Shown: piece after piece, positions 3,631 to 32,310 of the stretch | Numbering within the stretch: position 1 is the stretch's first letter | Layout of the letters: the number at the start of each line of letters is the position of its first letter | NCBI GenBank assembly: GCA_036564175.1 | Contig: DATCKZ010000012.1 | Location: forward strand, 18,373 to 82,372 | Direction: 5' to 3' | Length of the DNA: 64,000 nucleotides | Source of the DNA: Natronosporangium sp. | GTDB taxonomy: Bacteria > Actinomycetota > Actinomycetes > Mycobacteriales > Micromonosporaceae | Translations under genes and position numbers: made by a program | The notes under the pieces: generated by a model | Databases searched by the model: none | What the model was told of the DNA's origin: nothing | What the model saw: the letters and a program-made list of their open reading frames with translations, nothing else

Positions 3631-3632
3631 CC

Positions 3633-4432: not shown

Positions 4433-4438
4433 ACCGGC

Positions 4439-5227: not shown

Positions 5228-5233
5228 GCCAGG

Positions 5234-5524
5234 CTACCGGTTCGGGGCGTCGGCCCTCGCGCGCCGGCGCAGCAGCAGCGCCACCGAGATGGTGGTGAGG
5301 CCGACCAGGATCGCGACCGTGTTCGGGACGACGATCGCCAGGTCCGATCTGGCCATGCCGTAGGCGATCCAGAGCGCGAACCCCGGCAGCAGCACCGCGA
5401 AGAAGGCGATCGAGACGTCCTCCGACGACTTCCGACGCCACATCTGCCGGATCTGCAGGAGCGGGGAAACCGCCATCAGCAGGCCCCAGCAGGCGGCAGC
5501 GATCCCCAGCACGGTGACAGTCAT
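5234..5524 (-). CDS. SemiSWEET/PQ-loop family transporter
   Basis: Three hydrophobic helices; SPLLQI..RKSSEDVS, LWIAYG, PN motifs. Confidence 0.8.
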   Translation of the reverse strand: MTVTVLGIAAACWGLLMAVSPLLQIRQMWRRKSSEDVSIAFFAVLLPGFALWIAYGMARSDLAIVVPNTVAILVGLTTISVALLLRRRARADAPNR

Positions 5525-5678
5525 GAGCAACCTCGCTCGCGGGTAAGGCGCTCGGGCGGGCGGGCCGCGTCTATCGCGAGGCGCACCGGGTGGGAGGAGT
5601 GGCCGCTGGCCGGCGATAGGGAGCGCAAACGCGACCGATCCCCATGGTACTGCGCCCGGAGCTGCACAGATCTCTCTC

Positions 5679-5737
5679 CGCGATCATGGAGTTTTCGCCG
5701 ACCCGCCGCGCGACCCGCCGAATGCCCATGATCGCGC
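5679..5737. repeat. REP-like palindromic element (GATCATGGAGTT...CCATGATC family)
   Basis: CGCGATCATGG / CCATGATCGCG terminal inverted repeats; related copies at 17684 and 32350. Confidence 0.7.
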
Positions 5738-5817
5738 GGGAGGGGCGCGGGAAGGGGCGGGTGTGATTACGTCGTGTTGCGCTCCGGTAGCCCTGTGTAT
5801 ATAGCATGATATGCCCC

Positions 5818-7002: not shown

Positions 7003-7015
7003 CCCGCTCAGGCCG

Positions 7016-7780
7016 ATGGCCGGCTGGTTCTCGCAGCGCATCGTCGAAACCGGTCGGCTGCCGCTGTTCTGCTTCTTCGCCGGGATGCTGGTCGGGTTCG
7101 GGTTCATCCGGTTCTCGGTCCGGATGATCCGGGCGAACGTGCGCTGGTGGCCCGGGAACGTCACGCCGGGCGGGCTGCACGTCCACCACGTCGTGTTCGG
7201 TGTCGTGTTCATGATCCTGTCCGGGATCGCGATCCTCGCGATCCCGGACGAGCTGGTCGGCTGGCGGGCGATCGCGGCAACCTGGTTCGGGGTCGGCACC
7301 GCGCTGGTGCTCGACGAGTTCGCACTGATCCTGCACCTCGAGGATGTGTACTGGACCGAGCAGGGTCGGACCTCGATCGACGCGCTGTTCGCGGTGGTGG
7401 CGGTCACCGGGCTGCTCCTGCTCGGGGTGCACCCGTTCCTGGTCGAGGATTTCCAGCCGGTGGTCAACGGTGAGCCGGCGGCCTGGTGGTGGGCGATCCC
7501 GCCGTTGCTGCTGTCGCTCGGGTTCGCCGCCATCACCGTCCTGAAGGGGAAGATCTGGACCGGCCTGCTCGGGTTCTTCCTACCGCTGCTGCTGATCGTC
7601 GGCGCGATCCGGCTGGCCCGGCCGGCCTCTCCGTGGGCGCGTTGGCGGTACCGGCCGGGTCGCCGGCGCGGCGCCGAGAAGCTGGCCCGGGCCCGGCGCC
7701 GGGAGTTCCGGTTGCGGACCCCGGTGGTCCGCGCCAAGGATTGGTTCCAGGACCTGATCGCCGGCTCCCCCGACCGGTGA
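7016..7780 (+). CDS. Conserved actinobacterial integral membrane protein
   Basis: Multiple TM helices; GLHVHHVVFG and LVLDEFALILHLEDVYW motifs; GC3-rich codon usage. Confidence 0.8.
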   Translation: MAGWFSQRIVETGRLPLFCFFAGMLVGFGFIRFSVRMIRANVRWWPGNVTPGGLHVHHVVFGVVFMILSGIAILAIPDELVGWRAIAATWFGVGTALVLDEFALILHLEDVYWTEQGRTSIDALFAVVAVTGLLLLGVHPFLVEDFQPVVNGEPAAWWWAIPPLLLSLGFAAITVLKGKIWTGLLGFFLPLLLIVGAIRLARPASPWARWRYRPGRRRGAEKLARARRREFRLRTPVVRAKDWFQDLIAGSPDR

Positions 7781-7914
7781 GCTGGACCGGTGAGCTGGAC
7801 CGATTGTCTCGACCGGTGAGAAGGGTCGATCACCGCGGCCGATGATCCGGGCCGGTAGCCTCGGCATTCTAGACTTGCTCGTCATCGGTGGCGGAGGGGC
7901 GAGGGGGGCTTGCT

Positions 7915-10245: not shown

Positions 10246-10253
10246 CCGAGGTC

Positions 10254-10958
10254 CTAACCGAGGTTCTTCAGCGCTTCCCGGACCGACAGGGGCGCCAGCC
10301 GTGGTTGCTGGGAGGCCACGAACGCCCGGACCGCCGCCGGGTCGGTCTTCGCGTACTCCCGCAACGCCCAGCCGATCGCCTTGCGTACGAAGAAGTCCGG
10401 ATGCCCGGCCTGCACCGCGCAGTAGCGGAACAACCGGGCGGCGTCGGTCGCCTCCTTGAACGTGAGCTGGTGCAGGATGGCAGTGCGGACCAGCCACCGG
10501 TCCTCGTCGGTGAGCCACGCGTCGGTGGTCGCGACCAGCTTCGGGTGCATCGCCACCAGCGGCCCCACCAGGTGCGCCGCGAGTGCGTCCACAGTGTCCC
10601 ACCAGGCCTTCGTGACCAGCAGGTACCGGGCGGTCTCGATGAAGTCCGGGCCGCACAGCCGGGCGTGCCGGCGCAGCCAGCCGCACGCGAAGTACTGGTA
10701 CTCCCGTTCCGGCCGTTGCCAGCAGGCCAGCGCCACCGCCGCCAGATCCGGCTCGGTCGGCCGGGCCAGCCCGGCCAGCACGGTCCGGGTGAGCGCCTTC
10801 TGGGTCGGGCTCGGAATGCCGAGGAATGGGAACTGGTTGCGCATGTACGCGGCCATCGGAACGGCGCGCTCCGGGTCCCGGGCACCCTCGTAGGCGCGGG
10901 TGAGCCGGTCCATGATCTCCTCGGCCAGCGGCGTGGATGTCGGCTCGGGCTGCGGCAT
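10254..10958 (-). CDS. DNA alkylation repair protein (AlkD-like HEAT-repeat glycosylase)
   Basis: MAAYMRNQFPFLG, EREYQY, WWDTVD, FFVRKAIGWALREYAK. Confidence 0.88.
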   Translation of the reverse strand: MPQPEPTSTPLAEEIMDRLTRAYEGARDPERAVPMAAYMRNQFPFLGIPSPTQKALTRTVLAGLARPTEPDLAAVALACWQRPEREYQYFACGWLRRHARLCGPDFIETARYLLVTKAWWDTVDALAAHLVGPLVAMHPKLVATTDAWLTDEDRWLVRTAILHQLTFKEATDAARLFRYCAVQAGHPDFFVRKAIGWALREYAKTDPAAVRAFVASQQPRLAPLSVREALKNLG

Positions 10959-10999
10959 GCTGCGATCATGCCACCATGACCGCCGGTAGCGTGTCGGGC

Positions 11000-11671
11000 A
11001 TGAGCAGGTCACGACCGGTGGCCGGGGGCGGCCGGTGGGTGGAGGTGGACCCGGACCGGCTCGCCCGGTGGTTGGCCGGCTTCCGGGACCGGCACGGCGA
11101 GCTCGACGCGGCACCGGCCGACGGCGTGCTGGTGGTGACCGCCGCGGACGGGACGGTTGCCCGGCTGCACCCGCCGCCCGGGGCGCCCGCGGTCGATGGC
11201 CGGCCAGTCGATATCGGCGGGTCTGAGCTCGACCGGTTCATCGCCGCCGCCCGGGCGCCGCGCCGGCTCGGTCTGCTGCTGGCCCGCAAGGGCGCCGCCG
11301 CGGTCGGGGTCGCCGACGGCGGCAGGCTCACAACCTCCAAAGTTGACTCCTGGTACGTGCAGGGCCGGACCGCCGCCGGTGGCCAGTCGCAGCAACGGTT
11401 CGCGCGCCGGCGGGCCAACCAGGCCAGCGCCGCCGCCGGCAAGGCGGCCGACATCGTGGCCCGGCTGCTGCTGCCGGCCGCCAGCGAGCTGGCGGCGGTG
11501 GTCACCGGCGGCGACCGGCCAACCGTCGAGCAGATCCTCGCCGACCCGCGGCTCGCCCCGGTGCGGGCGCTGCGCAGCGACCGCCACCTGCCGGTGCCGA
11601 CCCCGAACCTGGCGGTGCTGCGGGACGCGGTCGCGGCCGCCCGGGCGGTCGGGATCCACCTGGCCGAGTAG
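11000..11671 (+). CDS. acVLRF1 (Vms1/eRF1-like) peptidyl-tRNA hydrolase family protein
   Basis: YVQGRTAAGGQSQQRFARRRANQ and VTGGDR motifs; alternative start at 10976. Confidence 0.85.
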   Translation: MSRSRPVAGGGRWVEVDPDRLARWLAGFRDRHGELDAAPADGVLVVTAADGTVARLHPPPGAPAVDGRPVDIGGSELDRFIAAARAPRRLGLLLARKGAAAVGVADGGRLTTSKVDSWYVQGRTAAGGQSQQRFARRRANQASAAAGKAADIVARLLLPAASELAAVVTGGDRPTVEQILADPRLAPVRALRSDRHLPVPTPNLAVLRDAVAAARAVGIHLAE

Positions 11672-11708
11672 CCGTCAGTGGCTGAGTAGCCCGAGGTGGC
11701 CGTAGCCG

Positions 11709-12677
11709 TCAGCCGGCGGCGAAGGTGTCGCACCGGCGCGGGTCGCCGGTGGAATAGCCGGTCTGGAACCACTGCTGTCGCTGGGCCGAGCTGCCGTGGG
11801 TGAACGCCTCCGGGTTGACCTCGCCGGTGGTCCGCTGCTGGATCGCGTCGTCGCCGACCGCCGCGGCCGCCTGCAGCGCCTCCGCGATGGCCTGCTCGGT
11901 GACCGCCTCGAACAGCGGCTGGCCGCGCTGGTCGCGGGTGTCCGCCGCGCCGTTCGCCCAACTGCCGGCCAGACAGTCGGCTTGCAGCTCCATCAACACC
12001 GAGTACTGGTTGGCGTTGCCGGGGTCGCGCTGCTGCGCCCGCCGGACCTGGCTCTCGATCCCGAGCAGCGTCTGCACGTGGTGCCCGTACTCGTGGGCCA
12101 GCACGTACGCCTGGGCGAACTCGCCGTTGGCACCGAATCGCCGGGCCAGCTCGTCGTAGAACGTCAGGTCCAGGTAGACGTGCCGGTCGCCGGGGCAGTA
12201 GAACGGGCCGGCGCCGGAGCTGGCGAACCCGCAGGCGGTGTCGACCGACTCGGAGAAGTAGCGGGTGGTGGTCGGCTGGTACGGGGCGCCGAAGTACTCG
12301 GGCAGCGCGGTCTGCCAGTAGGCCTGGATCGAGTTGACGTAGAGCAGGTTGCGGCAGGCCGGGTCGTCGAACCGGTCCTGGTTCTCCACCGCGCACGCCT
12401 CAGCCAGGCTGCCGCCCGACTCGGACGGCTGGTCGCCCAGCCCGCCCAGGTCGTCGACGCCGGGCAGCACCCCGGTCGCGCTGCCGCCGAACAGTAGCCC
12501 GAGCAGGACCAGCACCGCCAGCCCGATCAGCCCGCCCTTGCCGCCCGGCAGCGGCAGCCCGGTGCCGCCACCGCGCCCGGTCGGCAGCGGGAAGCCGAGC
12601 CGGCCACCCCGGCCGCGCCGGTCGCGCAGGTCCTCGACCTGGCCGGGGTCGAGGTTGGCATCCTCGTTCAGCGACAT
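11709..12677 (-). CDS. Neutral zinc metallopeptidase (YpfJ-like)
   Basis: GPFYCP, AHEYGHHVQ, ELQADC.AG, FTHGSS.QR; N-terminal TM anchor. Confidence 0.9.
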   Translation of the reverse strand: MSLNEDANLDPGQVEDLRDRRGRGGRLGFPLPTGRGGGTGLPLPGGKGGLIGLAVLVLLGLLFGGSATGVLPGVDDLGGLGDQPSESGGSLAEACAVENQDRFDDPACRNLLYVNSIQAYWQTALPEYFGAPYQPTTTRYFSESVDTACGFASSGAGPFYCPGDRHVYLDLTFYDELARRFGANGEFAQAYVLAHEYGHHVQTLLGIESQVRRAQQRDPGNANQYSVLMELQADCLAGSWANGAADTRDQRGQPLFEAVTEQAIAEALQAAAAVGDDAIQQRTTGEVNPEAFTHGSSAQRQQWFQTGYSTGDPRRCDTFAAG

Positions 12678-15782: not shown

Positions 15783-17726
15783 GTGGTCCAATCGATGGGC
15801 GGCAGCATGACCGGCGGCGGCTGGGGCACGCTGCGGGCGCTGCGCCGGCAGGACGAGGTCGAAGCGCACCAGATGCGCCCGGGTACCGCCCGGCGGGTGT
15901 TGGCGTTCGCCCGGCCGTACCGGGCCGACATCGCGGTGTTCCTGCTGGCGGTGGTGCTGGCGGCCGGGATCGGGGTGGCCACCCCGGTGATCGCCGGTCG
16001 GGTGGTCGACGTCATCTCCGCCGGTGGCCCGTCAGCCGGCCGGACTGTGATTTTGCTCGCATCGGCGTTCGCCGGCCTCGCCATCGTCGACGCGCTGCTG
16101 CAGCTGGCCCAGCGGTGGTACTCGGCCCGGATCGGCGAGGGCATCATCCTCGATCTGCGCTCCGGCGTCTACGACCACGTGCAGCGGATGCCGCTGCAGT
16201 TCTTCACCCGGACCCAGACCGGGGCGCTGGTGAGCCGGCTCAACAACGACGTGCTCGGCGCCCAGCGCGCGTTCACCAGCACCCTGTCCGGCGTGGTCAG
16301 CAACATCATCCAGCTGCTGCTCACCGCCGGCGTCATGTTCGCGCTGTCCTGGCAGATCACCGCGCTGTCGCTACTGCTGCTGCCGGCGTTCATCCTGCCC
16401 GCCCGCCGGGTCGGCCGGAAGCTGGCCGAGATCACGCGCGAGTCGTACGTGCTCGACGCGAAGATGAACGCCACCATGACCGAGCGGTTCGGGGTCGGCG
16501 GGGCGCTGCTGGTGAAGCTGTTCGGCCGCCCAGAGGAGGAGTACGACCGGTTCCGGGACCGGGCCGCCCGGGTCCGGGACATCGGGATCCGGCAGGCGAT
16601 GTACGCCCGGACGTTCTTCGTCGCGATGCTGCTGGTGGCGCTGCTGGCGCAGGCGCTGACGTACGGGCTGGGCGGCTGGTTCGCGGTGCACGGGCAGCTC
16701 TCGGCCGGCACCGTGGTGACGCTGGCGCTGCTGCTCACCCGGCTCTACGGCCCGCTCACCGAATTGGCGAACGTCCGGGTGGACGTGATGAGCGCGCTGG
16801 TCTCGTTCGACCGGGTCTTCGAGGTGCTGGACCTGGCCCCCGCGATCGCCGAGAAGCCGGACGCGGTGCCGCTGCCCGGCGGGCCCGGCCGGGTGGAGTT
16901 CCGGGACGTGCACTTCCGCTACCCGTCGGCGGCGGAGGTCTCGCTCGCCTCGCTGGAGGACGTGGCGGTGCTCGACCGGAAGGTCTCCGAGCCGGTGCTG
17001 CGCGGGGTGTCGTTCGTGGCCGAGCCGGGCCAGCTGGTGGCGCTGGTCGGCCCGTCGGGCGCCGGCAAGACCACCGCCTCGATGCTGGTGCCGCGGATCT
17101 ACGACCCGACCGCCGGCGCGGTGCTGATCGACGGCATCGACCTGCGCGACGCCACTCTCGACTCGATCCGGGACGCGGTCGGAGTGGTCACACAGGACGC
17201 TCACCTGTTCCACGAGTCGTTGGCCGAGAACCTGCGGTACGCCAAGCCGGACGCCACCGACCAGGAGCTCTGGCGGGCTTTGGAGCAAGCGCAGATCGCG
17301 GAGCTGGTCCGCTCGCTCCCGGATGGACTGGACACAGTGGTCGGCGAGCGGGGCTACCGGTTCTCTGGCGGCGAGAAGCAGCGGATCGCGATCGCCCGGT
17401 TGCTGCTGAAGGCACCGTCCATCGTGATCCTCGACGAGGCGACCGCGCACCTGGACTCGGAGTCCGAGGCGGCGGTGCAGCAGGCGCTCGCCACCGCGCT
17501 CACCGGCCGGACCGCGATCGTGATCGCGCACCGGCTCTCGACGGTCCGCAACGCCGACCAGATCCTGGTGCTCGACCAGGGCCGGATCGTGGAGCGGGGC
17601 CGGCACGAGGAGCTGGTCGCCGCCGGCGGGCTCTACGCCGAGCTCTACCGGACCCAGTTCGCGGTCGCCACCCCTTCCCCGTCGATCCAGGAGTTGTTCA
17701 CGCCCGATTTCGATAAATCGGGCTGA
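15783..17726 (+). CDS. ABC exporter, fused permease and ATPase
   Basis: N-terminal TM domain; GPSGAGKTT, FSGGEKQR, ILDEATAHLD, IAHRLST. Confidence 0.93.
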   Translation: MVQSMGGSMTGGGWGTLRALRRQDEVEAHQMRPGTARRVLAFARPYRADIAVFLLAVVLAAGIGVATPVIAGRVVDVISAGGPSAGRTVILLASAFAGLAIVDALLQLAQRWYSARIGEGIILDLRSGVYDHVQRMPLQFFTRTQTGALVSRLNNDVLGAQRAFTSTLSGVVSNIIQLLLTAGVMFALSWQITALSLLLLPAFILPARRVGRKLAEITRESYVLDAKMNATMTERFGVGGALLVKLFGRPEEEYDRFRDRAARVRDIGIRQAMYARTFFVAMLLVALLAQALTYGLGGWFAVHGQLSAGTVVTLALLLTRLYGPLTELANVRVDVMSALVSFDRVFEVLDLAPAIAEKPDAVPLPGGPGRVEFRDVHFRYPSAAEVSLASLEDVAVLDRKVSEPVLRGVSFVAEPGQLVALVGPSGAGKTTASMLVPRIYDPTAGAVLIDGIDLRDATLDSIRDAVGVVTQDAHLFHESLAENLRYAKPDATDQELWRALEQAQIAELVRSLPDGLDTVVGERGYRFSGGEKQRIAIARLLLKAPSIVILDEATAHLDSESEAAVQQALATALTGRTAIVIAHRLSTVRNADQILVLDQGRIVERGRHEELVAAGGLYAELYRTQFAVATPSPSIQELFTPDFDKSG

Positions 17727-17740
17727 ACAACTCCTAGATC
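17684..17740. repeat. REP-like long hairpin overlapping the ABC exporter stop; probable bidirectional terminator
   Basis: GATCCAGGAGTTGTTCA-C-GCCCGATTT-CGAT-AAATCGGGC-TGAACAACTCCTAGATC, between convergent genes. Confidence 0.75.
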
Positions 17741-17759
17741 CACGCGATCTATCCCGGGG

Positions 17760-18779
17760 TCAGAGCCAGCCGCGCCGGGCGGCGTACAGGCCGGCCTGGA
17801 ACCGGGTGTCGGCGCCGAGCGCGGCCATCAGCGAGGCGATCCTTCGCCGGGTGGTCCGGTAGCTCCAGCCCAGGTGCCGGGCGATCGCCTGGTCCGGCAT
17901 GCCGCTGGCGAGCAGCGCCAGCAGCCGCCGGTCGTCCGGGGTCGGCCCGCGCTCCGGGTCGGCCTCGTCCGGCAGGTGCGGCTCGGTCGGCGACAGCGGG
18001 GTGGCCTGCTCCCAGAGCCGGTCGAACACGTACAGCAGCACGTCCAGCAGCGAGCACGGGTGCACCACGATCGCGCCGGCGACGTCCCGCTGGTCGAGCG
18101 AGTGCGGGACGAACGCCAGCCTGCGGTCGAAAGTGGCGAGCTTGAGCGGCAGCTCGGTGGTGACCCGGGCCTGCTCGCCGGCCCGGACGTAGCGCAGGAT
18201 CGCCTCGATCGCGCCGGGGGAGCGGAGCAGCGCCCGCCGGTCGTAGATCGCCTTGCAGACCACCCCGCGGGCGAGGATCTCGAACTCCAGGTCGTTGGTG
18301 CCCGGGCCGGCCCGGCCGGCGTACGGCGGGGTGTCGAGCACCTGGATCTCGGTGGTTGCCGACCGCTGCAGCTGGTCGAACCGGTGCAACACCGCGTCCG
18401 ACCCGGTGACCACCTCGAACACCTCCGCCCGGGCGCTGCGCCGGCCGGCCCGGTAGTCCTCCATCCACTGCTGCGCGGTGGTCCGGACCCGGCCGAGCGC
18501 GGCCTCGCGGTCGAGGATCAGCGCGGCCAGCCCCACGTCCGGAGCGGCCGGCAGATACCGGGCGACCGCGTCCGGGGTCCGGCTGACCAGTCCGAGCCGC
18601 TCCAGGTTGGCGATCGCCCGGCGGACCCGGGCCTGGCTCAAATCGAGCCGTTCGGCGAGCTCGCTGGTGTCGCTGCTGGGGGCGCGCAGCAGCGCCCGGT
18701 AGACGCGCTCGGCGACCGGGTCGATGCCGAGCGGAGCCAGCGCTTGCTCGGGTGGTTGGCCAGTTGTGTCCACGGCCAT
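17760..18779 (-). CDS. TrmB-N / LuxR-type HTH transcriptional regulator
   Basis: N-terminal wHTH (AERVYRALL...LERLGLV), LPLKL central domain, C-terminal LASGMPDQAIARHLGWSYRTTRRRI..TRFQAG. Confidence 0.87.
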   Translation of the reverse strand: MAVDTTGQPPEQALAPLGIDPVAERVYRALLRAPSSDTSELAERLDLSQARVRRAIANLERLGLVSRTPDAVARYLPAAPDVGLAALILDREAALGRVRTTAQQWMEDYRAGRRSARAEVFEVVTGSDAVLHRFDQLQRSATTEIQVLDTPPYAGRAGPGTNDLEFEILARGVVCKAIYDRRALLRSPGAIEAILRYVRAGEQARVTTELPLKLATFDRRLAFVPHSLDQRDVAGAIVVHPCSLLDVLLYVFDRLWEQATPLSPTEPHLPDEADPERGPTPDDRRLLALLASGMPDQAIARHLGWSYRTTRRRIASLMAALGADTRFQAGLYAARRGWL

Positions 18780-18875
18780 AGCTGTCCACCTTAATGGCTG
18801 GACAGGTCGGGCGATCACCCCGGACCCTTAACCCGACACGTCGGGCGGGGGCCGTGCTGTGGAGGTAGTTCCCCC

Positions 18876-21800
18876 ATGCGGTTGTTTGCCGGATCCCCCC
18901 GCATCCGCCGGTTCTTCGCCATCATCGCCGCGCTCGGCTCTACCGGGTCGCTGGCTGCCGCCGCCCCGCCGCTCGCCGAGCGGCTGGCACCGCCGGTCGA
19001 GGTGGCGCAGCCGAGCCCCGAGCCCTGGCAGGACGAGGTCGCGCCGGCGGTGCTGCAGGAGCTGGCGGTCGAGGGTGAGGCGGACTTCTTCGTCGACTTC
19101 GGCGCGCGGGCCGACCTCAGCGGCGCCAAGGAGATCACTGACTGGCAGGCCCGCGGCGACTACGTGGTCGAGCGGCTGCAGGCGACCGCCGAGGCGAGCC
19201 AGCGGCAGACGATCGAGCTGCTGGAGCAGGCCGGCGTGCGGTATCGCCCGTTCTGGATCGTGAACACGATCCTGGTCGAGGACGGTACCGAGCAGCTGGC
19301 CGAGCGGCTCGCCACCCAGCCGGCGGTGACCGGGCTGAGCGAGGTGGGCGAGTACGAAGTGCCGGAGCTGCTCCCGGCCGAGCAGGAGGTCGCCGCCGAG
19401 CAGGTCGAGTGGGGGATCGCCGCGATCCGCGCCGACCAGGCCTGGGACCGGTTCGGCGTCCGCGGCGACGGGATCGTCATCGGCAGCATCGACACCGGGG
19501 TCCAGTACAACCACCCGGACCTGGTCGACCGGTACCGCGGCAACACCGGCGACGGCTTCGACCACAACTACAACTGGTACGACCCGTCGTCGATCTGCCC
19601 GACCGACGAGCCGTGTGACAACCAGGGCCACGGCACTCACACGACCGGCACGATGGTCGGCGGGTCGGCCAGCGGGTTCGGGATCGGGGTGGCACCGGAA
19701 GCGCAGTGGATCGCCGCGAAGGGCTGCGAGGCAGTCGGCCAGGTCGGCTGCACGGTGGACGCGCTGCTGGCATCCGGCGAGTGGATGCTGGCCCCGACCG
19801 ACCTGGCGGGCGAGAACCCGCGGACCGACCTGCGGCCGCACATCATCAACAACTCCTGGGGTGCCCACAACGGGTCGTTCGTGGACACCTACTACGACCA
19901 CATCATCAGCGCCTGGAACGCGGCCGGGATCTTCACGGTCTTCTCCGCCGGCAACGACGGCGCCCGGGGCTGCAACACCATCGCCTCGCCGGCCGACTCG
20001 CCGCACGCCTATGCGGTCGGGGCACACGACATCGACAACACCATCGCCGAGTTCTCCAGCCGCGGCCCGAGCGCCGGGGTGGACGTCCGGCCGAACATCG
20101 CCGCGCCCGGGGTGGCGATCCGCTCCAGCATCCCGGGCGGGTACGGGCTGGGCAACGGCACCTCGATGGCCGCCCCGCACGTGGCCGGCACGGTCGCGCT
20201 GATGTGGTCGGCCGCCCCGTCGCTGGTCGGCGACGTCGCCGGCACCCGGGAGCTGCTCGACCAGACCGCGGTCGACACCGAGGACCTGAGCTGCGGCGGC
20301 ACCGCGGCCCGCAACAACGTGTTCGGCGAGGGCCGGCTGGACGCACACGCGGCGGTGCTCGCCTCGCCGATCGGCCCGACCGGGGTGCTCACCGGGGTGG
20401 TGACCGACGCCGACACCGGTGCGCCGGTGCCGAACGCCACCGTCGAGGCGACCGGCCCGGACTACCGGCGGCGCACCAGCACCGACGCGGACGGCCGGTA
20501 CGAGATCAGCTTGGTGGCCGGCGAGTACCAGCTGACCGCGGTCGCCTACGGGTACGAGCAGGCCACCGTCACCGGGGTCATCGTCACCGAGGGCGAGACC
20601 ACCACGTCGGACATCCCGGTGGTGGCGTTGCCGTCGGTGACGGTCAGCGGGACGGTCACCGACGGCTCCGGGCACGGCTGGCCGCTGTACGCCGGGATCA
20701 CGATCGCCGGTTACCCGCACGGCACCATCTACACCGACCCGACCACCGGCCGGTACCAGGTGACTCTGCCGGCCGACACCACCTACCACCTCACTGTCAC
20801 CTCCCACTACGACGGGTACGACCGGCTCAGCACCGAGCTGGTGGTCGGGGACTCCGATCTGGTGGCCGACCTGGCGCTGACCGCGAGCACCGACGAGTGC
20901 CTGGCGCCCGGGTACCGGTCCGCGCACCTCGGTCTCTACGAGGCCTTCGACACCGGGGAGCCGCCGGCCGGCTGGACGCTGGAGACGACCGTCGGCGACG
21001 GCTGGCAGTTCAACGACCCGGGCCAGCGGACCAACCTGACCGGTGGCGAGGGCCGGTTCGCCAGCATCGACAGCGCCCACGGCGCCCTCTTCGAGGACGG
21101 CCTGCTCATCAGCGGACCGGTCGACCTGACCGATGCCGCCGACCCGCTGCTCAGCTTCCGGAGCGACGTGCTGCTGACCCGCGGCGTCGCCGAAGTGGAC
21201 ATCTCGATCGACGGCGGCGAGTCCTGGGACAACGTGTGGCGGCAGACCAGCCTCCGGCGTGGCCCGCGGCTGGAGCAGGTGTCGCTGCCGGCGGCGGCCG
21301 GCAAACCGGATGTGCGGGTGCGCTTCCACTACCGCAACGACGTCTCCTACAACGGGTGGTGGCAGGTCGACGAGGTGCTGCTCGGGGAACGCAGCTGCGC
21401 GCCGGTGCCGGGCGGGCTGGTGATCGGCCGGGTCACCGACGACCGGACCGGCGAGCCGGTGATCGGCGCCACGGTCGCCAGCGTGAGCCAGCCGGAGCTG
21501 CGGACGACCACCGTGGACACCCCGGATGACCGGGCGCTCGGGGGTGGCTTCTACTGGCTGTTCTCCCCGGCCACCGGCGAGCAGGAGCTGACCGCCGAGC
21601 ACGTGGTCGGGCAGTACGCCGCCGGCAGCGCCACGGCCAACGTGGTCGGCAGCGGGGTGGCCCGGGCCGACTTCGCGCTCAGCACCGGCGAGCTGGCGGT
21701 CAGCACCCGGACTATCGAGGCGAACCCGGAGCTGGGCCAGCGGCAGGTCACCACGGTGACGCTCACCAACGTCGGCACCGCCCCGGCCAAGTACCAGCTG

Positions 21801-24629
21801 ACCGAGCGCAACGACGAGTTCGCGCTACGGCCGGCGCAGCGGGAGCTGCTGGCGCAGCCGGGCGCGCCGCTGCAGCTGCTGCCGGTGGCCGGCGAGGATG
21901 CCGAGGCCTCGTCAGAATCGACCGGCGACCCCGCGGCCTCCCCGGACCCGACCGAAGTGGACTGGATCCAGCTGCACGACGCGCGCTGGGAGACGGAAAA
22001 CACGCTCGGCGCGGTGCATGACGGCAAGCTCTACGTGATCGGCGGCAGCAGCGGCACGCTACAGCGCAACCTGGTCTACGACATCGCCGAGGACCGGTGG
22101 GACATGACCAGCTTCATGCCGGTCCGGAACCTGCCGGCCGGTGACTTCCTCGGCGATCTGCTCTATGTGGTCGGTGGCTACGGGCCCAGTGGGGTCGGTG
22201 CGATGGCGACCAACCTGGTCTACGACCCGGCCACCGACAGCTGGTCGACCGCCGCCGACGCACCGTACCCGGTCGCGGTGGCCGGCCACGCGGTCCTCGA
22301 CGGCAAGCTCTACGTGATCGCCGGGCGCACCGGTGCGGACGGGGAGACCGCGCTCGCGTCGGTGGCGGTCTACGACCCGGTGACCGACTCCTGGTCGCGG
22401 GCGGCGGACTACCCGGAGCCGGCCGCCGGAATGTCCTGCGGCACGATCGACGGCCTGATCTACTGCGCAGGTGGCCGGGACGCCAACCACCGGCCGATGA
22501 ACCGGGCCTACGTCTACCACCCGGCGTCCGACAGCTGGCACCGGATCGCGGACCTCCCGCTCACCGCGGTCGGCAACGGGTACGCCGCGGCCAACGGCCT
22601 GCTGCTGATCTCCGGTGGGGTGTTCGGGGGCTACCGCACCAACATGGGGTTCTACTACGACCCGACCACCGGTGACTGGGGGGAGCTGCCGAACTCGCTG
22701 TTCCCGGTGGAGCGGATGGCCAGCGCCTGCGGTTTCTACAAGGTCGGCGGCTACCTAAACCCGGCGGTCGGCGACGTGCCGTGGCTCGAGCAGCTGCCCG
22801 GCTTCGACCAGTGCGACACCACCGGCGGCGACCAGCTGCCCTGGCTGTCCAGCTCGTCGACGACCGGGACGCTCGCGCCTGGCGAGTCGGTCGAAATCAC
22901 CGTCACGTTCGACGCCACCATCCCGGAGGTGAGCCAACCCGGCGACTACACAGGTTGGCTGACGGTGCTGGAGGACACCCCGTTCGCGGTCGAGCCGCTG
23001 CGGGTGACGATGGCGGCCACCCCGCCACCGTCGTGGGCGAGCATCACCGGCACCGTGACCGGGCTGGACCGGTGCGACACCGTGGGCCCGGCCGCCGAGG
23101 GCTCGCCGCTGGCCGGCGCGGTGGTGCGGATCCACGACGTCCGCTACCAGGCCGAGGTACGCACCGACGAGGCGGGCCGGTTCACGTACTGGCTGGACAC
23201 CTACCGGCAGGGCAACCGGCCGCTGCCACCGCTGGACGTGACCGCCTCGCTCGACGGGTGGGTCGCGGACACCGGCCGGGTGCTGGTCCGGCCCGGCAGC
23301 ACCGCGACCGCTGACTTCACGCTGCTCCGGCACGAGCCGTGCGCCACCGCCGACCCGGCGGAACTCTCGCTGACCGTGCCGGCCGGCGTGACCCGACCGG
23401 TGCACCTCACGCTCGGGAACACCAACGGCACGGCGGCGTACGACTACCAGCTGGCCACGGCGCCGCACCGGCTCGACCCGGTGCCGGCGGGTCCGACCAG
23501 CCTCGCCGCGCCAGAGTGGACCGACGGGGCGGCGGTGCCGCGGGGGGTGCGGCAGTACGCGCACGCGCAGTGCCCGACCGACCCGGACCACGGCTACGTG
23601 TTCGGTGGCCTCGACCCCGGCTTCCCGGAGGCGACCTTCGAGAGCTGGCGGTATGACGCGGTCGCCGACGAGTGGGAGCACCTGCCGGACGTGCCCGGCC
23701 CGGTCGTGAACGGGGTGGCGGTCTGCGAGGCCGGCAAGATCCACGTGCTCGGCGGTGCGGACACCGACGCCGTGCCATCCGACCGGCACTACGTCTACGA
23801 CATCGCCCGGAACGAGTGGAGCGAGGCGGCCCCGCTGCCGACCGCGCGTGCCGAGGCGGCTGCCGCGGTCTGGAACGGCACCATCTACCTGGCCGGCGGC
23901 ACGATCACCGGGGACTGGTACGAGGTGACCGACCGGGTGGACGCGTACGACATCGCGACCGACACCTGGCGGCCGGCCGCTTCGATGCCGGTGGCGCTCA
24001 GGTCGCCCGGCTTCATCCAGGTCGGACCCGAGCTGTACCTGGCCGGCGGGCTGGACCGGCGTACCACCGAGCAGGTCTTCGACGTGGTGCAGGTGCTGGA
24101 CCTCGACACCGGTAGCTGGCGGCTCGGCCCGCCGCTGGCGGAGCCGCGCTCCCACGTCGCGATGGCCGCCACCGACGCGGCGATCTACGCGATCGGCGGC
24201 AACCGGCAGGACCAGTTCGGCCTGATGCAGACCGCGACCGTGCAGCGGCTGCCGCACGGCGGCACCGCCTGGGAGCTGGGCACGGTGCCGGACCTGCCGG
24301 TGCTCCGAGCGTACGGCGCCGCCGGGTTCTGCAGCCACGGCCGGGCCGGCGGGGAGATCTGGTCGATCGGTGGCACCCACGGTCTGGAGCGGACGCTCTA
24401 CTACCCACTCGCTGGCGAGCGGTGCGCCACGCTCAACGCGGACGTCCCGTGGCTGGGGCTGCCCGCCCCGACCGGCACGGTGGCGGCTGGCAAGTCCACC
24501 CGGATCACCCTGACCGTCGACACCACCGGCCTGTCGGCGGGTGACGAGGTCAGCGCCACGCTGCTGGTCCTCACCTCCGACCCCGGGGCCCCGGAGCTGC
24601 GGGTCCCGGTGACCGTGCGAGTGCGGTGA
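18876..24629 (+). CDS. Secreted S8 (subtilisin/bacillopeptidase F-like) serine protease with carboxypeptidase-regulatory-like domains and two kelch-repeat regions
   Basis: Signal peptide; triad IDTG, HGTHTTG, GTSMAAPHVAG; repeated LYVIGG/YDP.TDSW kelch motifs. Confidence 0.9.
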   Translation: MRLFAGSPRIRRFFAIIAALGSTGSLAAAAPPLAERLAPPVEVAQPSPEPWQDEVAPAVLQELAVEGEADFFVDFGARADLSGAKEITDWQARGDYVVERLQATAEASQRQTIELLEQAGVRYRPFWIVNTILVEDGTEQLAERLATQPAVTGLSEVGEYEVPELLPAEQEVAAEQVEWGIAAIRADQAWDRFGVRGDGIVIGSIDTGVQYNHPDLVDRYRGNTGDGFDHNYNWYDPSSICPTDEPCDNQGHGTHTTGTMVGGSASGFGIGVAPEAQWIAAKGCEAVGQVGCTVDALLASGEWMLAPTDLAGENPRTDLRPHIINNSWGAHNGSFVDTYYDHIISAWNAAGIFTVFSAGNDGARGCNTIASPADSPHAYAVGAHDIDNTIAEFSSRGPSAGVDVRPNIAAPGVAIRSSIPGGYGLGNGTSMAAPHVAGTVALMWSAAPSLVGDVAGTRELLDQTAVDTEDLSCGGTAARNNVFGEGRLDAHAAVLASPIGPTGVLTGVVTDADTGAPVPNATVEATGPDYRRRTSTDADGRYEISLVAGEYQLTAVAYGYEQATVTGVIVTEGETTTSDIPVVALPSVTVSGTVTDGSGHGWPLYAGITIAGYPHGTIYTDPTTGRYQVTLPADTTYHLTVTSHYDGYDRLSTELVVGDSDLVADLALTASTDECLAPGYRSAHLGLYEAFDTGEPPAGWTLETTVGDGWQFNDPGQRTNLTGGEGRFASIDSAHGALFEDGLLISGPVDLTDAADPLLSFRSDVLLTRGVAEVDISIDGGESWDNVWRQTSLRRGPRLEQVSLPAAAGKPDVRVRFHYRNDVSYNGWWQVDEVLLGERSCAPVPGGLVIGRVTDDRTGEPVIGATVASVSQPELRTTTVDTPDDRALGGGFYWLFSPATGEQELTAEHVVGQYAAGSATANVVGSGVARADFALSTGELAVSTRTIEANPELGQRQVTTVTLTNVGTAPAKYQLTERNDEFALRPAQRELLAQPGAPLQLLPVAGEDAEASSESTGDPAASPDPTEVDWIQLHDARWETENTLGAVHDGKLYVIGGSSGTLQRNLVYDIAEDRWDMTSFMPVRNLPAGDFLGDLLYVVGGYGPSGVGAMATNLVYDPATDSWSTAADAPYPVAVAGHAVLDGKLYVIAGRTGADGETALASVAVYDPVTDSWSRAADYPEPAAGMSCGTIDGLIYCAGGRDANHRPMNRAYVYHPASDSWHRIADLPLTAVGNGYAAANGLLLISGGVFGGYRTNMGFYYDPTTGDWGELPNSLFPVERMASACGFYKVGGYLNPAVGDVPWLEQLPGFDQCDTTGGDQLPWLSSSSTTGTLAPGESVEITVTFDATIPEVSQPGDYTGWLTVLEDTPFAVEPLRVTMAATPPPSWASITGTVTGLDRCDTVGPAAEGSPLAGAVVRIHDVRYQAEVRTDEAGRFTYWLDTYRQGNRPLPPLDVTASLDGWVADTGRVLVRPGSTATADFTLLRHEPCATADPAELSLTVPAGVTRPVHLTLGNTNGTAAYDYQLATAPHRLDPVPAGPTSLAAPEWTDGAAVPRGVRQYAHAQCPTDPDHGYVFGGLDPGFPEATFESWRYDAVADEWEHLPDVPGPVVNGVAVCEAGKIHVLGGADTDAVPSDRHYVYDIARNEWSEAAPLPTARAEAAAAVWNGTIYLAGGTITGDWYEVTDRVDAYDIATDTWRPAASMPVALRSPGFIQVGPELYLAGGLDRRTTEQVFDVVQVLDLDTGSWRLGPPLAEPRSHVAMAATDAAIYAIGGNRQDQFGLMQTATVQRLPHGGTAWELGTVPDLPVLRAYGAAGFCSHGRAGGEIWSIGGTHGLERTLYYPLAGERCATLNADVPWLGLPAPTGTVAAGKSTRITLTVDTTGLSAGDEVSATLLVLTSDPGAPELRVPVTVRVR

Positions 24630-29069: not shown

Positions 29070-29468
29070 TTGTCTGATTACGATGGAACGGACATGTGCT
29101 CCTACGCCATCGACGTATGGCTGGAGGACACCTCTCTGCTGACCGACCCGGCGAGGCTGCTCAGGTTGCTGCGCGACGCCGCGGCGGTGGGGCACGCGGT
29201 GGTGCTGGGCGAGGCCCATCACCAGTTCCCGAACGGCGCGGTCACCGCGATGCTGGTGCTGTCGCAGTCGCACCTCAGCGTCCACACCTGGCCCGAGTAC
29301 GGGTCGGCCAACTTCGACCTGCTGACCTGTGGCCGGCTCAGCGGCGAGTCGATGGTGCGGCACCTGACCGGCGCGCTGCGGCCGATCAGCTGGCAGCTCA
29401 GCCGGGTCAGCCGGGCGGTCCGGGATCCGGTGACCGCCGTCCGGGAGCCGGTGCCCGGCGTCCGCTGA
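29070..29468 (+). CDS. speD: Pyruvoyl-dependent S-adenosylmethionine decarboxylase family proenzyme (SpeD/SpeH-like)
   Basis: HQFPNGAVTAMLVLSQSHLSVHTWPE...DLLTCG; AAAGGGA RBS before TTG 29070 (alternative ATG 29094). Confidence 0.82.
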   Translation: MSDYDGTDMCSYAIDVWLEDTSLLTDPARLLRLLRDAAAVGHAVVLGEAHHQFPNGAVTAMLVLSQSHLSVHTWPEYGSANFDLLTCGRLSGESMVRHLTGALRPISWQLSRVSRAVRDPVTAVREPVPGVR

Positions 29469-30792
29469 CGAACCGGCACAGGCTGCCGATGGTTCGCAGG
29501 CAGTCCAGCGCCAGGTCTTCGGCGGCGACGTCGACCCCGAGCCGGTCGCGGATCGCCGCCAGCAACCGGGCGCCGGCGAGCGAGCCGAGCGGCAGTGGTC
29601 CGTGGAGCAGGTCGGTGGTCGCCGGCAACCGGTCGACCACCGACCGCTCCACCCCGAGCGCCTCGGCGAGCAGCTCCCGGACCACCGCATCCACTGACTC
29701 CGCTTCCGGCTCCGCGGCCGCCGATTGCTTCGGCGCGGTGATCGTGAGCCATGGTGGCGGGGCGGGTGGGTCGGCGGCCAGCCGGCGGGCGAGCACGCCC
29801 GGGTCCGCGGTGGCCTCGAACCCGACCTGCCGCAGCAGCACCCGCAGCTCCAGGTTCGCCTGTTGCGGGCGTACGTCCATCAGCAGGCGCGCGGCGCCGC
29901 TAGCCCGCGCCTGCGCCAGAATCCAGTGCAGGAAGGCGGTGGGTACGCCGCGGCCGATCGCCCGGCAGGAGACCGTGAACAGGTGCAGCCTGGGGTCGGC
30001 AGCGCCCGGCCGAGGGTCGGCGGCGCGCTCGAGCAGCGCGGCGCCGATCAGCCCGTAGTCGCCGAACCGGTCGGTGAGCCTGGCCGCCGCTACCAGCCAG
30101 CCCGGATCCGCCACCAGCTCGGCGAGCCGGTGCCGGGGCCAGCCGGCGCCGGTCGAATTGAAGCGGTGGGTACGGGCGACCAGCTCGGCCAGCCGATCCA
30201 GATCGGCGACGGTCGCCGGGGCGACGGTGAGCCGGATCCGGCAACCCCGCAGGAACGCGGCCCGGTCGCCGGCGAACCCCGCCTCGGCCGCCCGGCGCTG
30301 CTGCTCCTGCCGGTACCGGGTGACCCGGCGCCGGCCGTCTTCGGTGACCACCGGCGGGTTGAACCGGGGCGTGTCGAGCTGGGCGTAGAGCTGGTCCGGT
30401 GCGAGCACGAGCACCTCCGGCAGCAGCGCGGCGACCTCTGCCCGCTCGAACGGGTCGTCGTCGACGAACGCGATCGCCGCCGGCGCGATGCCGAGCTCGG
30501 CGGCGATCCGGCGCAGCGCCTCGCTCTTGTGCCCCCAGCCGAGCTGGCCGGCGACGAACCGGTCGCGCAGCGCCGGGTCACGGTCGAGCAGCCCGCCGAC
30601 CGACGGGTCGGTGCGGCTGGCGACGCTGTTGACGATGCCACGTGCTTCGAGTCGCTCGATCGCGGCCAGTGCCGCCGGGAACGGCCGCGGTTGCTGGCCG
30701 GCCGGCAGCTCCACCGCGACCTCCGGCCAGAGCGTGCCGTCGAGGTCCCAAACCACGCACTTCACCGGGGCGGTCACCGGGTCAGCCGGCAT
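29407..30792 (-). CDS. FkbH-like HAD-IIIC glyceryl transferase fused to a C-terminal acyl carrier protein domain
   Basis: VKCVVWDLDGTLW, WGHKS, AFVDDDPFERAEV, RTHRFNSTG, DRFGDYGLIG, VSCRAIGRG; C-terminal ACP-like helices around LGSL..ARLLAAIRDRLGVDV...LRTIGSL. Confidence 0.82.
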   Translation of the reverse strand: MPADPVTAPVKCVVWDLDGTLWPEVAVELPAGQQPRPFPAALAAIERLEARGIVNSVASRTDPSVGGLLDRDPALRDRFVAGQLGWGHKSEALRRIAAELGIAPAAIAFVDDDPFERAEVAALLPEVLVLAPDQLYAQLDTPRFNPPVVTEDGRRRVTRYRQEQQRRAAEAGFAGDRAAFLRGCRIRLTVAPATVADLDRLAELVARTHRFNSTGAGWPRHRLAELVADPGWLVAAARLTDRFGDYGLIGAALLERAADPRPGAADPRLHLFTVSCRAIGRGVPTAFLHWILAQARASGAARLLMDVRPQQANLELRVLLRQVGFEATADPGVLARRLAADPPAPPPWLTITAPKQSAAAEPEAESVDAVVRELLAEALGVERSVVDRLPATTDLLHGPLPLGSLAGARLLAAIRDRLGVDVAAEDLALDCLRTIGSLCRFVSGRRAPAPGRRSPDPGPPG

Positions 30793-31258
30793 CGGCCCGC
30801 CACTTCATGGTCAGAAACGCCGGCGCGAACCCGTACTTCCGGTACAGCGTCCGCATCGCCAGATTGTCCACATGCACCCGCCCGACCACCTCCGTGACCT
30901 GCTGCGCCCGGGCGTACCCAAGGGCGTGCTCGAGCAGCGCCTCGGCGGTGCCGGCCGGCGCGTCCGGCGCCACCGCCAGCGACCGGAAGTTGGCGTACCG
31001 AGCGCCGGTGAGGAAGTTCGTGTTGATCGCCAGCCAGAGCCAGCCGGTGACCGGCCCGGTGCTGTTGTCGCGGTCGGTGACGAACATGCCGGCCCGGTCC
31101 CGCTCCAGCGCCTTCGCCAGCTTCCGCTGGTGGACGGCCGGGTCGGTGACCGCGTCCTCGCCGAACGACACCTCCGCGATCGTGACCTCGAAGGCCGCGA
31201 GCGCCGGCAGGTCCCGCGGCTCGGCCAACCGGACCACCGGTCCCGGCCGCTGCGTCAT
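30782..31258 (-). CDS. GNAT-fold N-acyltransferase
   Basis: VRLAEPRDL, GWLWL, LAVAP, VHVDNLAMRTLYRKYGF; coupled to both neighbours by short overlaps. Confidence 0.8.
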   Translation of the reverse strand: MTQRPGPVVRLAEPRDLPALAAFEVTIAEVSFGEDAVTDPAVHQRKLAKALERDRAGMFVTDRDNSTGPVTGWLWLAINTNFLTGARYANFRSLAVAPDAPAGTAEALLEHALGYARAQQVTEVVGRVHVDNLAMRTLYRKYGFAPAFLTMKWRADAG

Positions 31259-32310
31259 CGCCGGCCAACCCGCGACTGCGCGGTATAGAGCGGGCCGGCG
31301 TAGTGGCCGGGCACCGCGCTCGCCGTCACGGTCGTCGTGACCAGCCAGGACAGGTGGCTCACGCCGCCGAGCACGCCGCTTCCTTCGTACTCGTTGAAAT
31401 TGCGGTAGCTGGCCTGCACGGCGAGCCCGATCTCGGCGACCGCCCGCTGGACGGCGAGCGTGTCATCCGGACCCTTCGGGCCGAACGAGAACGCGATCGG
31501 CCGGCCCGGGCCGGGCAGCAGCCCTTCGACCACCCGGGACAAGAACAGCCGCGCTCCGGCCACCGTGTACGGCGGGTCGGTCATCGCGGTCTGGAACCGG
31601 CCGCGCAGCCGGTCCGGCAGTGGATCGCGCAGGTCGTGCCGGCACCGGTCAACCTGGACCCCGGGGTTGCCGAGCTCGGCCTGCGCCTCGCCGATGAACC
31701 CGAGCAGGTCGGCCGAGATCTCGACCACCGCGAGCCGGCGGACCAGCGGCTGGCCGAGTGCCTGGCTCGCCGCCAGCAGGCTGAGCGACATCAGGTCGTC
31801 GTCGCCCACGATCAGCATCGACTCGGCCGGCAGGAGGTCGAGCTTGAGCAGCAGGGCGATCCGGCGCAGCTTGGTCGCGATCGTGCAGTGTGACTGGTCG
31901 AGCGCGAGGTCGGCGGCGGGCACCCGGGCCTGCAACGCGGCGAGCCGGTCGGCGACCGCTCGGAGCGGTTCCGGGATGGCGAGCCCGCCGCCGTCGCAGC
32001 CGGGGCAACGCAGGTCGAGCGCGGGGTCCGGCCCGAGCAGTGCGAGCCCTCGCTCGGTGAGCCGGGACGGCCGGTCCCGGGTGACCAGGCCGCGCCGGCG
32101 CAGCTCATTCGTGACCGCAGCGACCACCGGGACCGGGATGCCGGTCTGCCGGCTCACCTGCCGGGTCGGCGCGGGGGAGAGCCGGCGGATCGCGGACAGC
32201 ACTCGGTGCACGCCGGGCGCGCCTTCCTGCAGACCCACCGCCGCGGCAACGGACTCCAACACCGACTCGTGCATGCTGGCGGTCAATCTACGCCGCCCGG
32301 CCGCCGTCAC
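31255..32310 (-). CDS. BpsA/DUF43-like bis-aminopropyl-spermidine synthase (branched-chain polyamine synthase) family protein
   Basis: N-terminal wHTH, CPGCDGGG, LDQSHCT...RR, VGDDDLMSL, HDLRDPLP, TDPPYT..G..LFLSR, FNEY; alternative start ATG 32274 (TAGATT 10 nt upstream). Confidence 0.82.
   Translation of the reverse strand: MTAAGRRRLTASMHESVLESVAAAVGLQEGAPGVHRVLSAIRRLSPAPTRQVSRQTGIPVPVVAAVTNELRRRGLVTRDRPSRLTERGLALLGPDPALDLRCPGCDGGGLAIPEPLRAVADRLAALQARVPAADLALDQSHCTIATKLRRIALLLKLDLLPAESMLIVGDDDLMSLSLLAASQALGQPLVRRLAVVEISADLLGFIGEAQAELGNPGVQVDRCRHDLRDPLPDRLRGRFQTAMTDPPYTVAGARLFLSRVVEGLLPGPGRPIAFSFGPKGPDDTLAVQRAVAEIGLAVQASYRNFNEYEGSGVLGGVSHLSWLVTTTVTASAVPGHYAGPLYTAQSRVGRR

Follow-up and report, generated by a model that had tools for sequence, protein, structure and literature searches.

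BpsA, the N4-bis(aminopropyl)spermidine synthase (EC 2.5.1.128) with solved structures from T. kodakarensis (5XNC) and T. thermophilus (6J27), makes N4-aminopropyl- and N4-bis(aminopropyl)spermidine by ping-pong transfer and is described in passages of PMC12979288 as having an acceptor site composed of D225, E259, Y290 and Y316 in the T. kodakarensis enzyme (Tk-BpsA), a GDDD motif, and a C-terminal acidic carrier cluster that holds the aminopropyl group as an ester; section 3 of that paper reports branched polyamines from thermophiles, and an acetylated branched polyamine is known in T. kodakarensis. Glycerate operons of the tetronate and methoxymalonyl-ACP type, such as that for tetromadurin (Mad7, Mad8 and Mad16), are treated in parts of PMC7489565, and contain FkbH, a dedicated acyl carrier protein (ACP), often a phosphopantetheinyl transferase (PPTase), and a FabH-like enzyme or dehydrogenases. 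A 64,000-nucleotide stretch of contig DATCKZ010000012.1 from Natronosporangium sp. (the window) contains a cassette that draws on both, in which genes for a BpsA-like protein, a GNAT N-acyltransferase and an FkbH-ACP fusion meet a convergent gene for an S-adenosylmethionine decarboxylase (AdoMetDC; Table 1). The cassette shares FkbH, the dedicated ACP and often the PPTase with the glycerate operons, but its conserved set includes no FabH, dehydrogenase, ketosynthase (KS) or condensation (C) component, and the GNAT is the sole conserved candidate consumer of glyceryl-ACP.

We conclude that the cassette is a real, conserved and undescribed pathway built from known folds and, under the reading that we prefer, a variant of the FkbH/ACP glycerate module. 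The original prediction held that no described pathway has this combination of genes; none was found in the literature searched, which lay outside subscription journals and supplements, and the passages of PMC11107197 that bear on the subject do not mention BpsA.

The reading that we prefer, and put forward tentatively, is that the module equips a small amine other than spermidine with a 3-(glyceramido)propyl group. AdoMetDC, to judge from its family, would make decarboxylated S-adenosylmethionine (dcSAM), and the BpsA-like enzyme would move the aminopropyl group of dcSAM onto a small, non-polycationic cellular amine, probably not spermidine. FkbH, again by analogy with its family, is predicted to load glycerate from 1,3-bisphosphoglycerate onto holo-ACP, and the GNAT would then cap an amine of the same molecule with the ACP-borne glycerate to give a glyceramide. 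Both groups would end up on one molecule, the aminopropyl group being added first, to give a 3-(glyceramido)propyl conjugate (+57 and +88 Da) that resembles a polyamine but has less charge; the acceptor may be a small molecule, for example an amino acid or a diamine already acylated at one end. A precedent for acylating a BpsA product comes from T. kodakarensis with its acetylated branched polyamine, although acetyl-CoA is used there.

Recurrence and organization of the cassette

The genes had been proposed to form a unit from this one copy, and both their co-occurrence and their fixed order bear out that they are a conserved, stand-alone set. A profile scan of GTDB yielded at least 381 stretches encoding BpsA-like relatives; in the best 80 of these, counted with profiles built from those same 80 loci, all five core parts (BpsA-like, GNAT, FkbH, ACP and AdoMetDC) are present in 53, and the set recurs in three phyla. 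Individually, the GNAT is found in 64 loci, FkbH in 61, the ACP in 56, AdoMetDC in 71, and an adjacent PPTase in 22, several of the misses being due to contig ends. Where at least 4 kb of sequence is available downstream (68 loci), GNAT, FkbH and ACP are all present in 54 and all absent in 13, with the ACP alone missing in one. The genes keep the order BpsA-GNAT-FkbH-ACP throughout, at a median spacing of -4 nt, while AdoMetDC shifts in position and strand. No conserved neighbour was found beyond the five parts and the PPTase, other shared neighbours reflecting kinship of the loci. Fusions are of six kinds (BpsA::GNAT, FkbH::ACP, ACP::AdoMetDC, BpsA::AdoMetDC, GNAT::ACP and GNAT::FkbH::ACP), and taken together they link every proposed step.

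When metagenome loci are anchored on the GNAT (the best 80 of 258), BpsA is present in 57 of the 63 that extend far enough upstream and FkbH in 47 of the 62 that extend far enough downstream. Near-copies of a single gut mobile element, likely from Bacteroidota (L142:4251-8827, with near-copies in L121-L140), make up many of the misses. In this element AbiEi/AbiEii is followed directly by the cassette GNAT, with genes for an AraC regulator and for a fused BpsA::AdoMetDC on the opposite strand; there is no FkbH or ACP in that locus.

In a quick, midpoint-rooted tree without canonical BpsA rows, in which rows of close kin are not independent, the full cassette occupies clades of Actinomycetota, Chloroflexota and Bacillota, between which solo forms are interspersed (5 changes). 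The cassette is rare, with a full-length match in 3 of 60 relatives and its GNAT in 3 of 250 other Actinomycetes genomes; five Bacillota genomes whose BpsA-like genes score lower gave no such GNAT. Among the named carriers are Streptomyces (for example S. canus NA07887), Micromonospora (for example sp. CPCC 206060) and Nocardioides, and the set also lies next to Tn3 on a Microbulbifer plasmid, where the BpsA-like gene is broken. An IMG/VR scan gave 59 pattern matches with no relative among them, phage records gave a single 70-residue match in an unannotated 4.3-kb record, and PADLOC returned no match for the four cassette proteins.

That the locus is a chance cluster or a decaying remnant is something we hardly credit. 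The rarity of the set, the broken gene on the plasmid copy, and the lack of a zinc ribbon in the window BpsA-like protein (see below) could be taken that way; the fixed gene order, the short overlaps, the variety of fusions and the intact catalytic motifs speak against it, and the same short BpsA C-terminus is found in four other database proteins (P0006-P0009).

The BpsA-like enzyme

The BpsA-like protein of the window matches PF01861 at 101 bits (cut-off 27), with additional weak winged-helix matches, and contains a basic N-terminal winged helix, a CxxC motif, GDDD at residues 169-172, TDPPY at 244-248, and Y308. It shares with BpsA the fold and the layout of winged helix, CxxC and Rossmann domain: a model of the L019 homolog has BpsA (5XNC) as its closest structure (Z 29.8; root-mean-square deviation (rmsd) 2.8 Å over 232 residues), the next structural family being the ribosomal RNA N6-methyladenosine (m6A) enzyme METTL5 (Z 19.7). 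GDDD, the motif that positions dcSAM, is present in 84/84 clade members and spans G169-D172 in the window copy, and the equivalents of Tk-BpsA D225 and Y290 are kept (D245 and Y308). These residues suggest that the enzyme probably still uses dcSAM, a requirement that it would have in common with BpsA as portrayed in those passages.

The acceptor site is remodelled. We compared 17 cassette-clade sequences with 30 canonical Bacillota BpsAs, the best 30 of 41 matches. All 30 canonical enzymes are acidic at P0001 columns 248, 278, 344 and 346, where no acid is among the commonest residues of the 17 cassette enzymes. Column 248 is a tyrosine in 17/17 cassette enzymes, forming DPPY, and a glutamate in 30/30 canonical ones; E278, D344 and E346 are each invariant in the canonical set and not among the commonest cassette residues, and residues 278-281 of the window protein read PKGP, with no acid. 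More widely, DPPY is found in 83/84 and 118/120 clade members, against DP(P/V)E in 30/30 canonical BpsAs. There is no equivalent of E259. Over the site, a segment of 30 residues in canonical enzymes is cut to 12 in the cassette clade, an 18-residue loop with the conserved W-Y being missing; we take the tyrosine of this loop to be Tk Y316, the PDB sequence alignment ending at Tk 297. K279 was considered as a gained basic residue and dropped because Tk-BpsA has an arginine at that column in the HMMER alignment.

The acidic carrier cluster (E339, D342, D343, E344 and E345 in Tk-BpsA) has no counterpart in a structural alignment that extends to Tk 349; at the corresponding DEE-type cluster 67/69 cassette-clade sequences have no more than one acid, and the window copy has none. 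The lid consensus is ELYxDxE in canonical enzymes and PLYTADxR in the cassette clade (PLYTAQSR in the window), with median net charges of -3 and +2 respectively, and the median winged-helix charge is -1 in the former and +5 in the latter. A C-terminal zinc ribbon, an addition relative to canonical BpsA, is present in 107/120 homologs and absent from the window copy, which ends after LYT, from its close relatives, and from several solo forms; an Atlas feature search with the ribbon gave no usable match. Going by its sequence, then, the enzyme fails two defining features of BpsA, the acceptor-site residues and the acidic carrier cluster, and its acceptor site looks unsuited to a polycation. It further differs from BpsA in its linkage to GNAT, FkbH and ACP, the cassette GNAT lying within 1.5 kb in 0/30 canonical BpsA loci.

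DPPY invites a comparison with amino-methyltransferases, as METTL5, RlmJ and the DNA m6A methyltransferases have it at the equivalent position of their fold. Protein side chains are the targets of HemK-like and PF10237 enzymes, and PF10237 (N6-adenineMlase) is found in 12-16% of the members of two Atlas clusters of the DPPY clade. A passage of PMC3814359 gives (D/N)PP(Y/F/W) as the catalytic motif of adenine-N6 methyltransferases. A macromolecular acceptor can be envisaged, in which case the DPPY enzyme aminopropylates an exocyclic base nitrogen of RNA or DNA, or a Lys or Gln of a protein, and the GNAT caps it with glycerate to give an N-(3-glyceramidopropyl) hypermodification. We think this unlikely, while granting it some real weight. 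The near-universal DPPY and its placement, METTL5 as next structural neighbour, the PF10237 matches, the basic winged helix and lid, the missing 18-residue loop and the zinc ribbon of most homologs all fit it; interphylum movement without acceptor-supply genes would suit a universal target, and at one related locus with PqqD and radical-SAM genes a peptide could be the acceptor. Set against these points, the ribbon is dispensable in the window copy and its relations, a winged helix is present in canonical BpsA too, and the new tyrosine may simply substitute for the lost Y316. No target-recognition domain, restriction partner, PADLOC match or IMG/VR relative was seen with the cassette, only the one 70-residue phage-record match, and the retained GDDD and the linkage to AdoMetDC point to aminopropyl rather than methyl transfer. 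FkbH/ACP systems, in the parts of PMC7489565 concerned, are known from small-molecule pathways.

Several other PF01861 forms were seen. In L014-L017 (G057, G051, G042 and G050) there is a separate actinobacterial clade of 470-570 aa with GDHD for GDDD, DPPY and a long C-terminal extension, with no AdoMetDC, GNAT or FkbH apparent among the called genes. L242, L244 and L245 have solo DPPY-type genes whose products end right after IYT, located between a ribonucleotide-reductase-like gene and a whiA-gap-pgk-like operon, and L094:8575-12680 (Chloroflexia) has a solo BpsA-like gene with AdoMetDC, flanked by a dnaA-like gene and by an rlmN-like gene with which there is an overlap (neighbours named by reading their sequences).

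AdoMetDC and the supply of spermidine

The window AdoMetDC matches TIGR03330 at 77.5 bits (cut-off 75.65), and its S67, H72 and C87 align with S63, H68 and C83 of the T. maritima enzyme, given in a section of PMC10407285 as the processing and catalytic residues of class 1b AdoMetDC; the same source notes that homologs of this type can be arginine or ornithine decarboxylases. HTWPE is present here and in 74/75 cassette AdoMetDCs, and its proline may be the residue that Fig. 8 of PMC10407285 uses to tell SAM from arginine or ornithine specificity. The 5/5 tested genomes that lack AdoMetDC in the cassette locus have one elsewhere.

Spermidine synthase (SpeE) was not found above the family cut-off in 5/5 cassette genomes, with scores of about 34 bits in the source genome (G000) and G323, under a strict cut-off that only 4/9 controls passed and with a source genome (4.6 Mb) that is 78.6% complete. 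Spermidine is nevertheless possible in three of the five genomes, which encode SpeE-like proteins of greater length that score 125-133 bits. As one route to diamines, PF01276 was found in 2/5 cassette genomes.

These observations bear on the product first envisaged for the cassette, a branched polyamine, in which N4-aminopropylspermidine or the bis form would be made from spermidine and N-glycerylated by the GNAT, in parallel with the acetylated compound of T. kodakarensis. That proposal is weakened by the loss of E259 and the Y316 loop and by the change of the carrier cluster to neutral or basic, and we now regard it as improbable. Among solved structures BpsA is the closest by a wide margin, and the GDDD, D225 and Y290 equivalents are kept; but four acidic positions of the canonical site are gone along with the carrier cluster, no SpeE passes the strict cut-off, and carriers include Streptomyces, Micromonospora and Nocardioides, whereas the reports of branched polyamines are from thermophiles.

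FkbH, the ACP and the GNAT

The FkbH domain matches TIGR01686 at 179.3 bits (cut-off 146.65) and has the HAD motif D16-x-D18-x-T20 and S-C276-R; DxDxT and SCR are each present in 60/60 full-length cassette FkbHs. The PP-binding domain scores 31.3 bits (cut-off 20.8), and the ACP serine is invariant in 45/45. The source genome has a homolog of Sfp-type PPTases on another contig, at 186 bits on the profile of cassette PPTases.

Its other contigs also hold nonribosomal peptide synthetase (NRPS) and KS genes. On one of them (L018, G000:C97:36000-55999; 2823-12276 and 16454-19750) is a second FkbH-ACP (693 aa; TIGR01686, 290 bits) that adjoins a glycosyltransferase and an NRPS with C-A-T-TE fused to a major facilitator superfamily domain, an unusual NRPS::transporter fusion, with nitroreductase and YcaO genes nearby.

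The window was said to have no KS, C, adenylation (A) or FabH domain, and tblastn with such queries indeed gave nothing at E<=1e-3. Beyond it, KS or C is found within 10 kb in 2/80 loci (KS or FabH in one, C in one). LuxI, FeeM and OlsB are GNAT-fold amide synthases that use acyl-ACP, and the cassette GNAT is likewise predicted to make an amide from an ACP-borne acyl group, the donor being fatty acyl in those enzymes and a predicted glyceryl in the cassette. GNATs that use acetyl-CoA have a CoA pyrophosphate loop of the form R/Q-x-x-G-x-G/A, as also seen in PDB alignments. Motif A of the cassette GNAT reads FRSLAVAPDAPAGTAEALL and has no such loop; the loop is found in 0/58 cassette GNATs from genomes (10 of 68 could not be parsed) and in 1/56 distinct ones from metagenomes, compared with 8/12 and 4/6 unrelated GNATs read by eye.

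The GNAT model (predicted local distance difference test, pLDDT, 93.7) has a standard N-acyltransferase fold, with matches of Z up to 18.0 in which Ard1/Naa10, DpA, YncA-like proteins and others tie at Z 17-18. One of the tied best matches is the polyamine acetyltransferase DpA (8A9N; Z 17.7, rmsd 2.5 Å over 139 residues), which uses acetyl-CoA, unlike what the missing pyrophosphate loop implies for the cassette GNAT. LuxI, FeeM and OlsB are not among the fold matches listed, which leaves a likeness possible, and an Atlas search found generic GNAT clusters alone. Co-folding of GNAT and ACP scored 0.38 against 0.00 for the best control, with runs agreeing in at least 94% of contacts and a partner pLDDT of at least 89. 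That mark is reached by 116/157 solved pairs and 2/215 mismatched pairs; scores of 0.60 or less at it come from 18 solved pairs and both mismatches only, and the models thus lend weak support to the pairing.

The joint gain and loss of GNAT with FkbH and ACP, the fusions, the missing CoA loop and the weak co-fold together make the GNAT the likely consumer of glyceryl-ACP, and we are fairly confident that it takes an acyl group from the ACP. The part of the original prediction in which the GNAT could pass the glyceryl group from ACP to an amine is supported, while its choice of a branched polyamine as acceptor is weakened. The GNAT could otherwise be an ordinary acyl-CoA enzyme for product control or self-protection, with glyceryl-ACP used by the BpsA-like enzyme (alkylating the ACP-bound glycerate) or by polyketide synthases (PKS) or NRPSs elsewhere. 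Some relatives do keep the CoA loop, the gut-element loci have the GNAT without FkbH and ACP, the source genome has NRPS and KS genes, and two related loci lie beside PKS/NRPS genes. We nevertheless find such an arrangement quite improbable, as GNAT, FkbH and ACP come and go as one block, GNAT::ACP fusions exist, the loop is missing from nearly all cassette GNATs, the assembly lines at the 2/80 loci with KS or C have an FkbH of their own, and solo BpsA loci have no ACP.

Order of the steps and nature of the acceptor

Addition of the aminopropyl group before the glyceryl group is suggested by the retained GDDD and by loci with AdoMetDC and BpsA only (a two-gene form that occurs in Gaiellales, for example), which are found in genomes without the cassette GNAT (best GNAT score 38 bits, compared with 184-225 for members); these loci also suggest that aminopropylation is independent of the glyceryl step. 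The reverse order, in which a diamine is acylated first, is conceivable. A small-molecule acceptor is favoured by the tie of DpA for best fold match, by the location of the cassette directly after PKS/NRPS genes in L114 and L198, and by the dispensability of the zinc ribbon. The cassette may tailor larger scaffolds too, given the PKS/NRPS loci and the radical-SAM locus.

Several observations weigh against a small-molecule conjugate made by an ACP-dependent GNAT. No acceptor, exporter or resistance gene was found in the cassette, and DPPY, the basic lid and winged helix, the open loop and the zinc ribbon are no less suited to a nucleic acid or a protein as acceptor. The CoA loop is kept by 9/45 representatives of the wider GNAT set and, in canonical form, by two BpsA::GNAT fusions (P0144 and P0154), Bacillota members retain a partial R-G loop, and the gut-element GNAT lacks the full loop in a locus with neither FkbH nor ACP. 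The fold matches of the GNAT do not tell acetyltransferases of polyamines apart from those of protein N-termini, and many loci are close kin, so that the counts are not independent. We nonetheless retain the 3-(glyceramido)propyl conjugate of a small amine as our tentative reading.

Other settings of the cassette

At the PKS/NRPS loci (L197, L198 at G066:C20:66000-104000, and L114), a hybrid PKS/NRPS ends in C-FkbH-T, and the cassette comes immediately after it, together with a dimethylformamidase-beta-like gene; the genome of L197 and L198 has a second, solo BpsA-like gene (L096). In a low-GC, Clostridia-like sequence (L179:1239-9364), PqqD and three radical-SAM genes run into BpsA-GNAT-FkbH-ACP-AdoMetDC and then a fourth radical-SAM gene, and here the cassette possibly tailors a ribosomally synthesized and post-translationally modified peptide. 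Upstream of the cassette on the same strand of L011 (9205-13998; G015) are genes for a fatty-acid desaturase, a flavin oxidoreductase, a Cys/Met pyridoxal-phosphate enzyme, a second ACP and a protein of unknown type. Many Streptomyces (L020-L030, L032, L040 and L092) have a BpsA::GNAT cassette beside chaplin-like and tyrosinase-like genes, probably as the result of one ancestral insertion.

Gene layout and genomic context

The four open reading frames (ORFs) were located as first described, and Pfam and NCBIfam profiles verify their BpsA_C, GNAT, FkbH plus PP-binding, and AdoMet_dc domains (Table 1). Also present in the sequence are the reported ATGA overlap of BpsA and GNAT, the 11-nt overlap of GNAT and FkbH, and the 62-nt convergent overlap of AdoMetDC with FkbH-ACP. 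The FkbH-ACP ORF extends over 29407-30792(-), with the FkbH match at residues 10-327 and PP-binding at 370-442.

Table 1. Features of the cassette, in window coordinates
Feature	Position	Strand	Remarks
BpsA-like (PF01861) putative aminopropyltransferase, DPPY clade	31255..32310	-	BpsA_C PF01861, E 8e-29
GNAT N-acyltransferase, 158 aa	30782..31258	-	Acetyltransf_1, E 5e-7; predicted user of glyceryl-ACP
FkbH domain of the 461-aa FkbH-ACP fusion	29812..30792	-	TIGR01686; glycerate loading from 1,3-bisphosphoglycerate predicted
ACP domain of the FkbH-ACP ORF	29407..29709	-	PP-binding, invariant Ser404 (LGSLAG); ORF stop at 29407
Class 1b pyruvoyl AdoMetDC	29070..29468	+	AdoMet_dc, TIGR03330; convergent

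The junction of the BpsA stop and GNAT start is matched by a contig from another public DNA run (X3, 31014-31375, 0 differences), and the FkbH-ACP linker by contigs of other such runs (X4, 29643-29790; X9, 29635-29809; 0 differences in each); these contigs indicate that neither the short BpsA C-terminus nor the fusion is an assembly error. For the BpsA-like gene, a start near 32274 or 32262 is more probable than one at 32310, as the database record is of 335 aa and a GC-frame gene caller picks 32274. Short matching contig pieces in an RNA run (X20) were not used as a sign of expression, because their share is small and they may be DNA carry-over. A scan of the locus for sigma-70 promoters and terminators gave 0 sites, a result that carries no information at 74% GC.

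The cassette is flanked by housekeeping genes, with an aconitase upstream and a GH3 hydrolase downstream, and its G+C content does not stand out; the closest named homologs of its proteins are actinobacterial. Elsewhere in the window, as read from the sequences, are a 1917-aa secreted subtilisin-like protease with carboxypeptidase-regulatory-like and Kelch-like repeats (18876-24629, +) and a SUF-type Fe-S assembly operon (37-4432, +).

Implications

Members of the DPPY clade, all of which match PF01861, are named N4-bis(aminopropyl)spermidine synthases in databases. As they lack the residues that define BpsA activity, hundreds of these annotations in apparently non-thermophilic bacteria are probably wrong, and the cassette offers a small, self-contained route to the role of a second class of BpsA-fold enzymes, in carriers that include culturable Streptomyces, Micromonospora, Nocardioides and Paenibacillus. 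If the proposed chemistry is true, glyceryl-ACP would have a use outside of PKS/NRPS chemistry, and its user would be a GNAT in which CoA has apparently been swapped for a carrier protein. Were the acceptor instead RNA, DNA or protein, the system would be categorically new: a mobile, multi-phylum modification system fed by the carrier chemistry of natural products.

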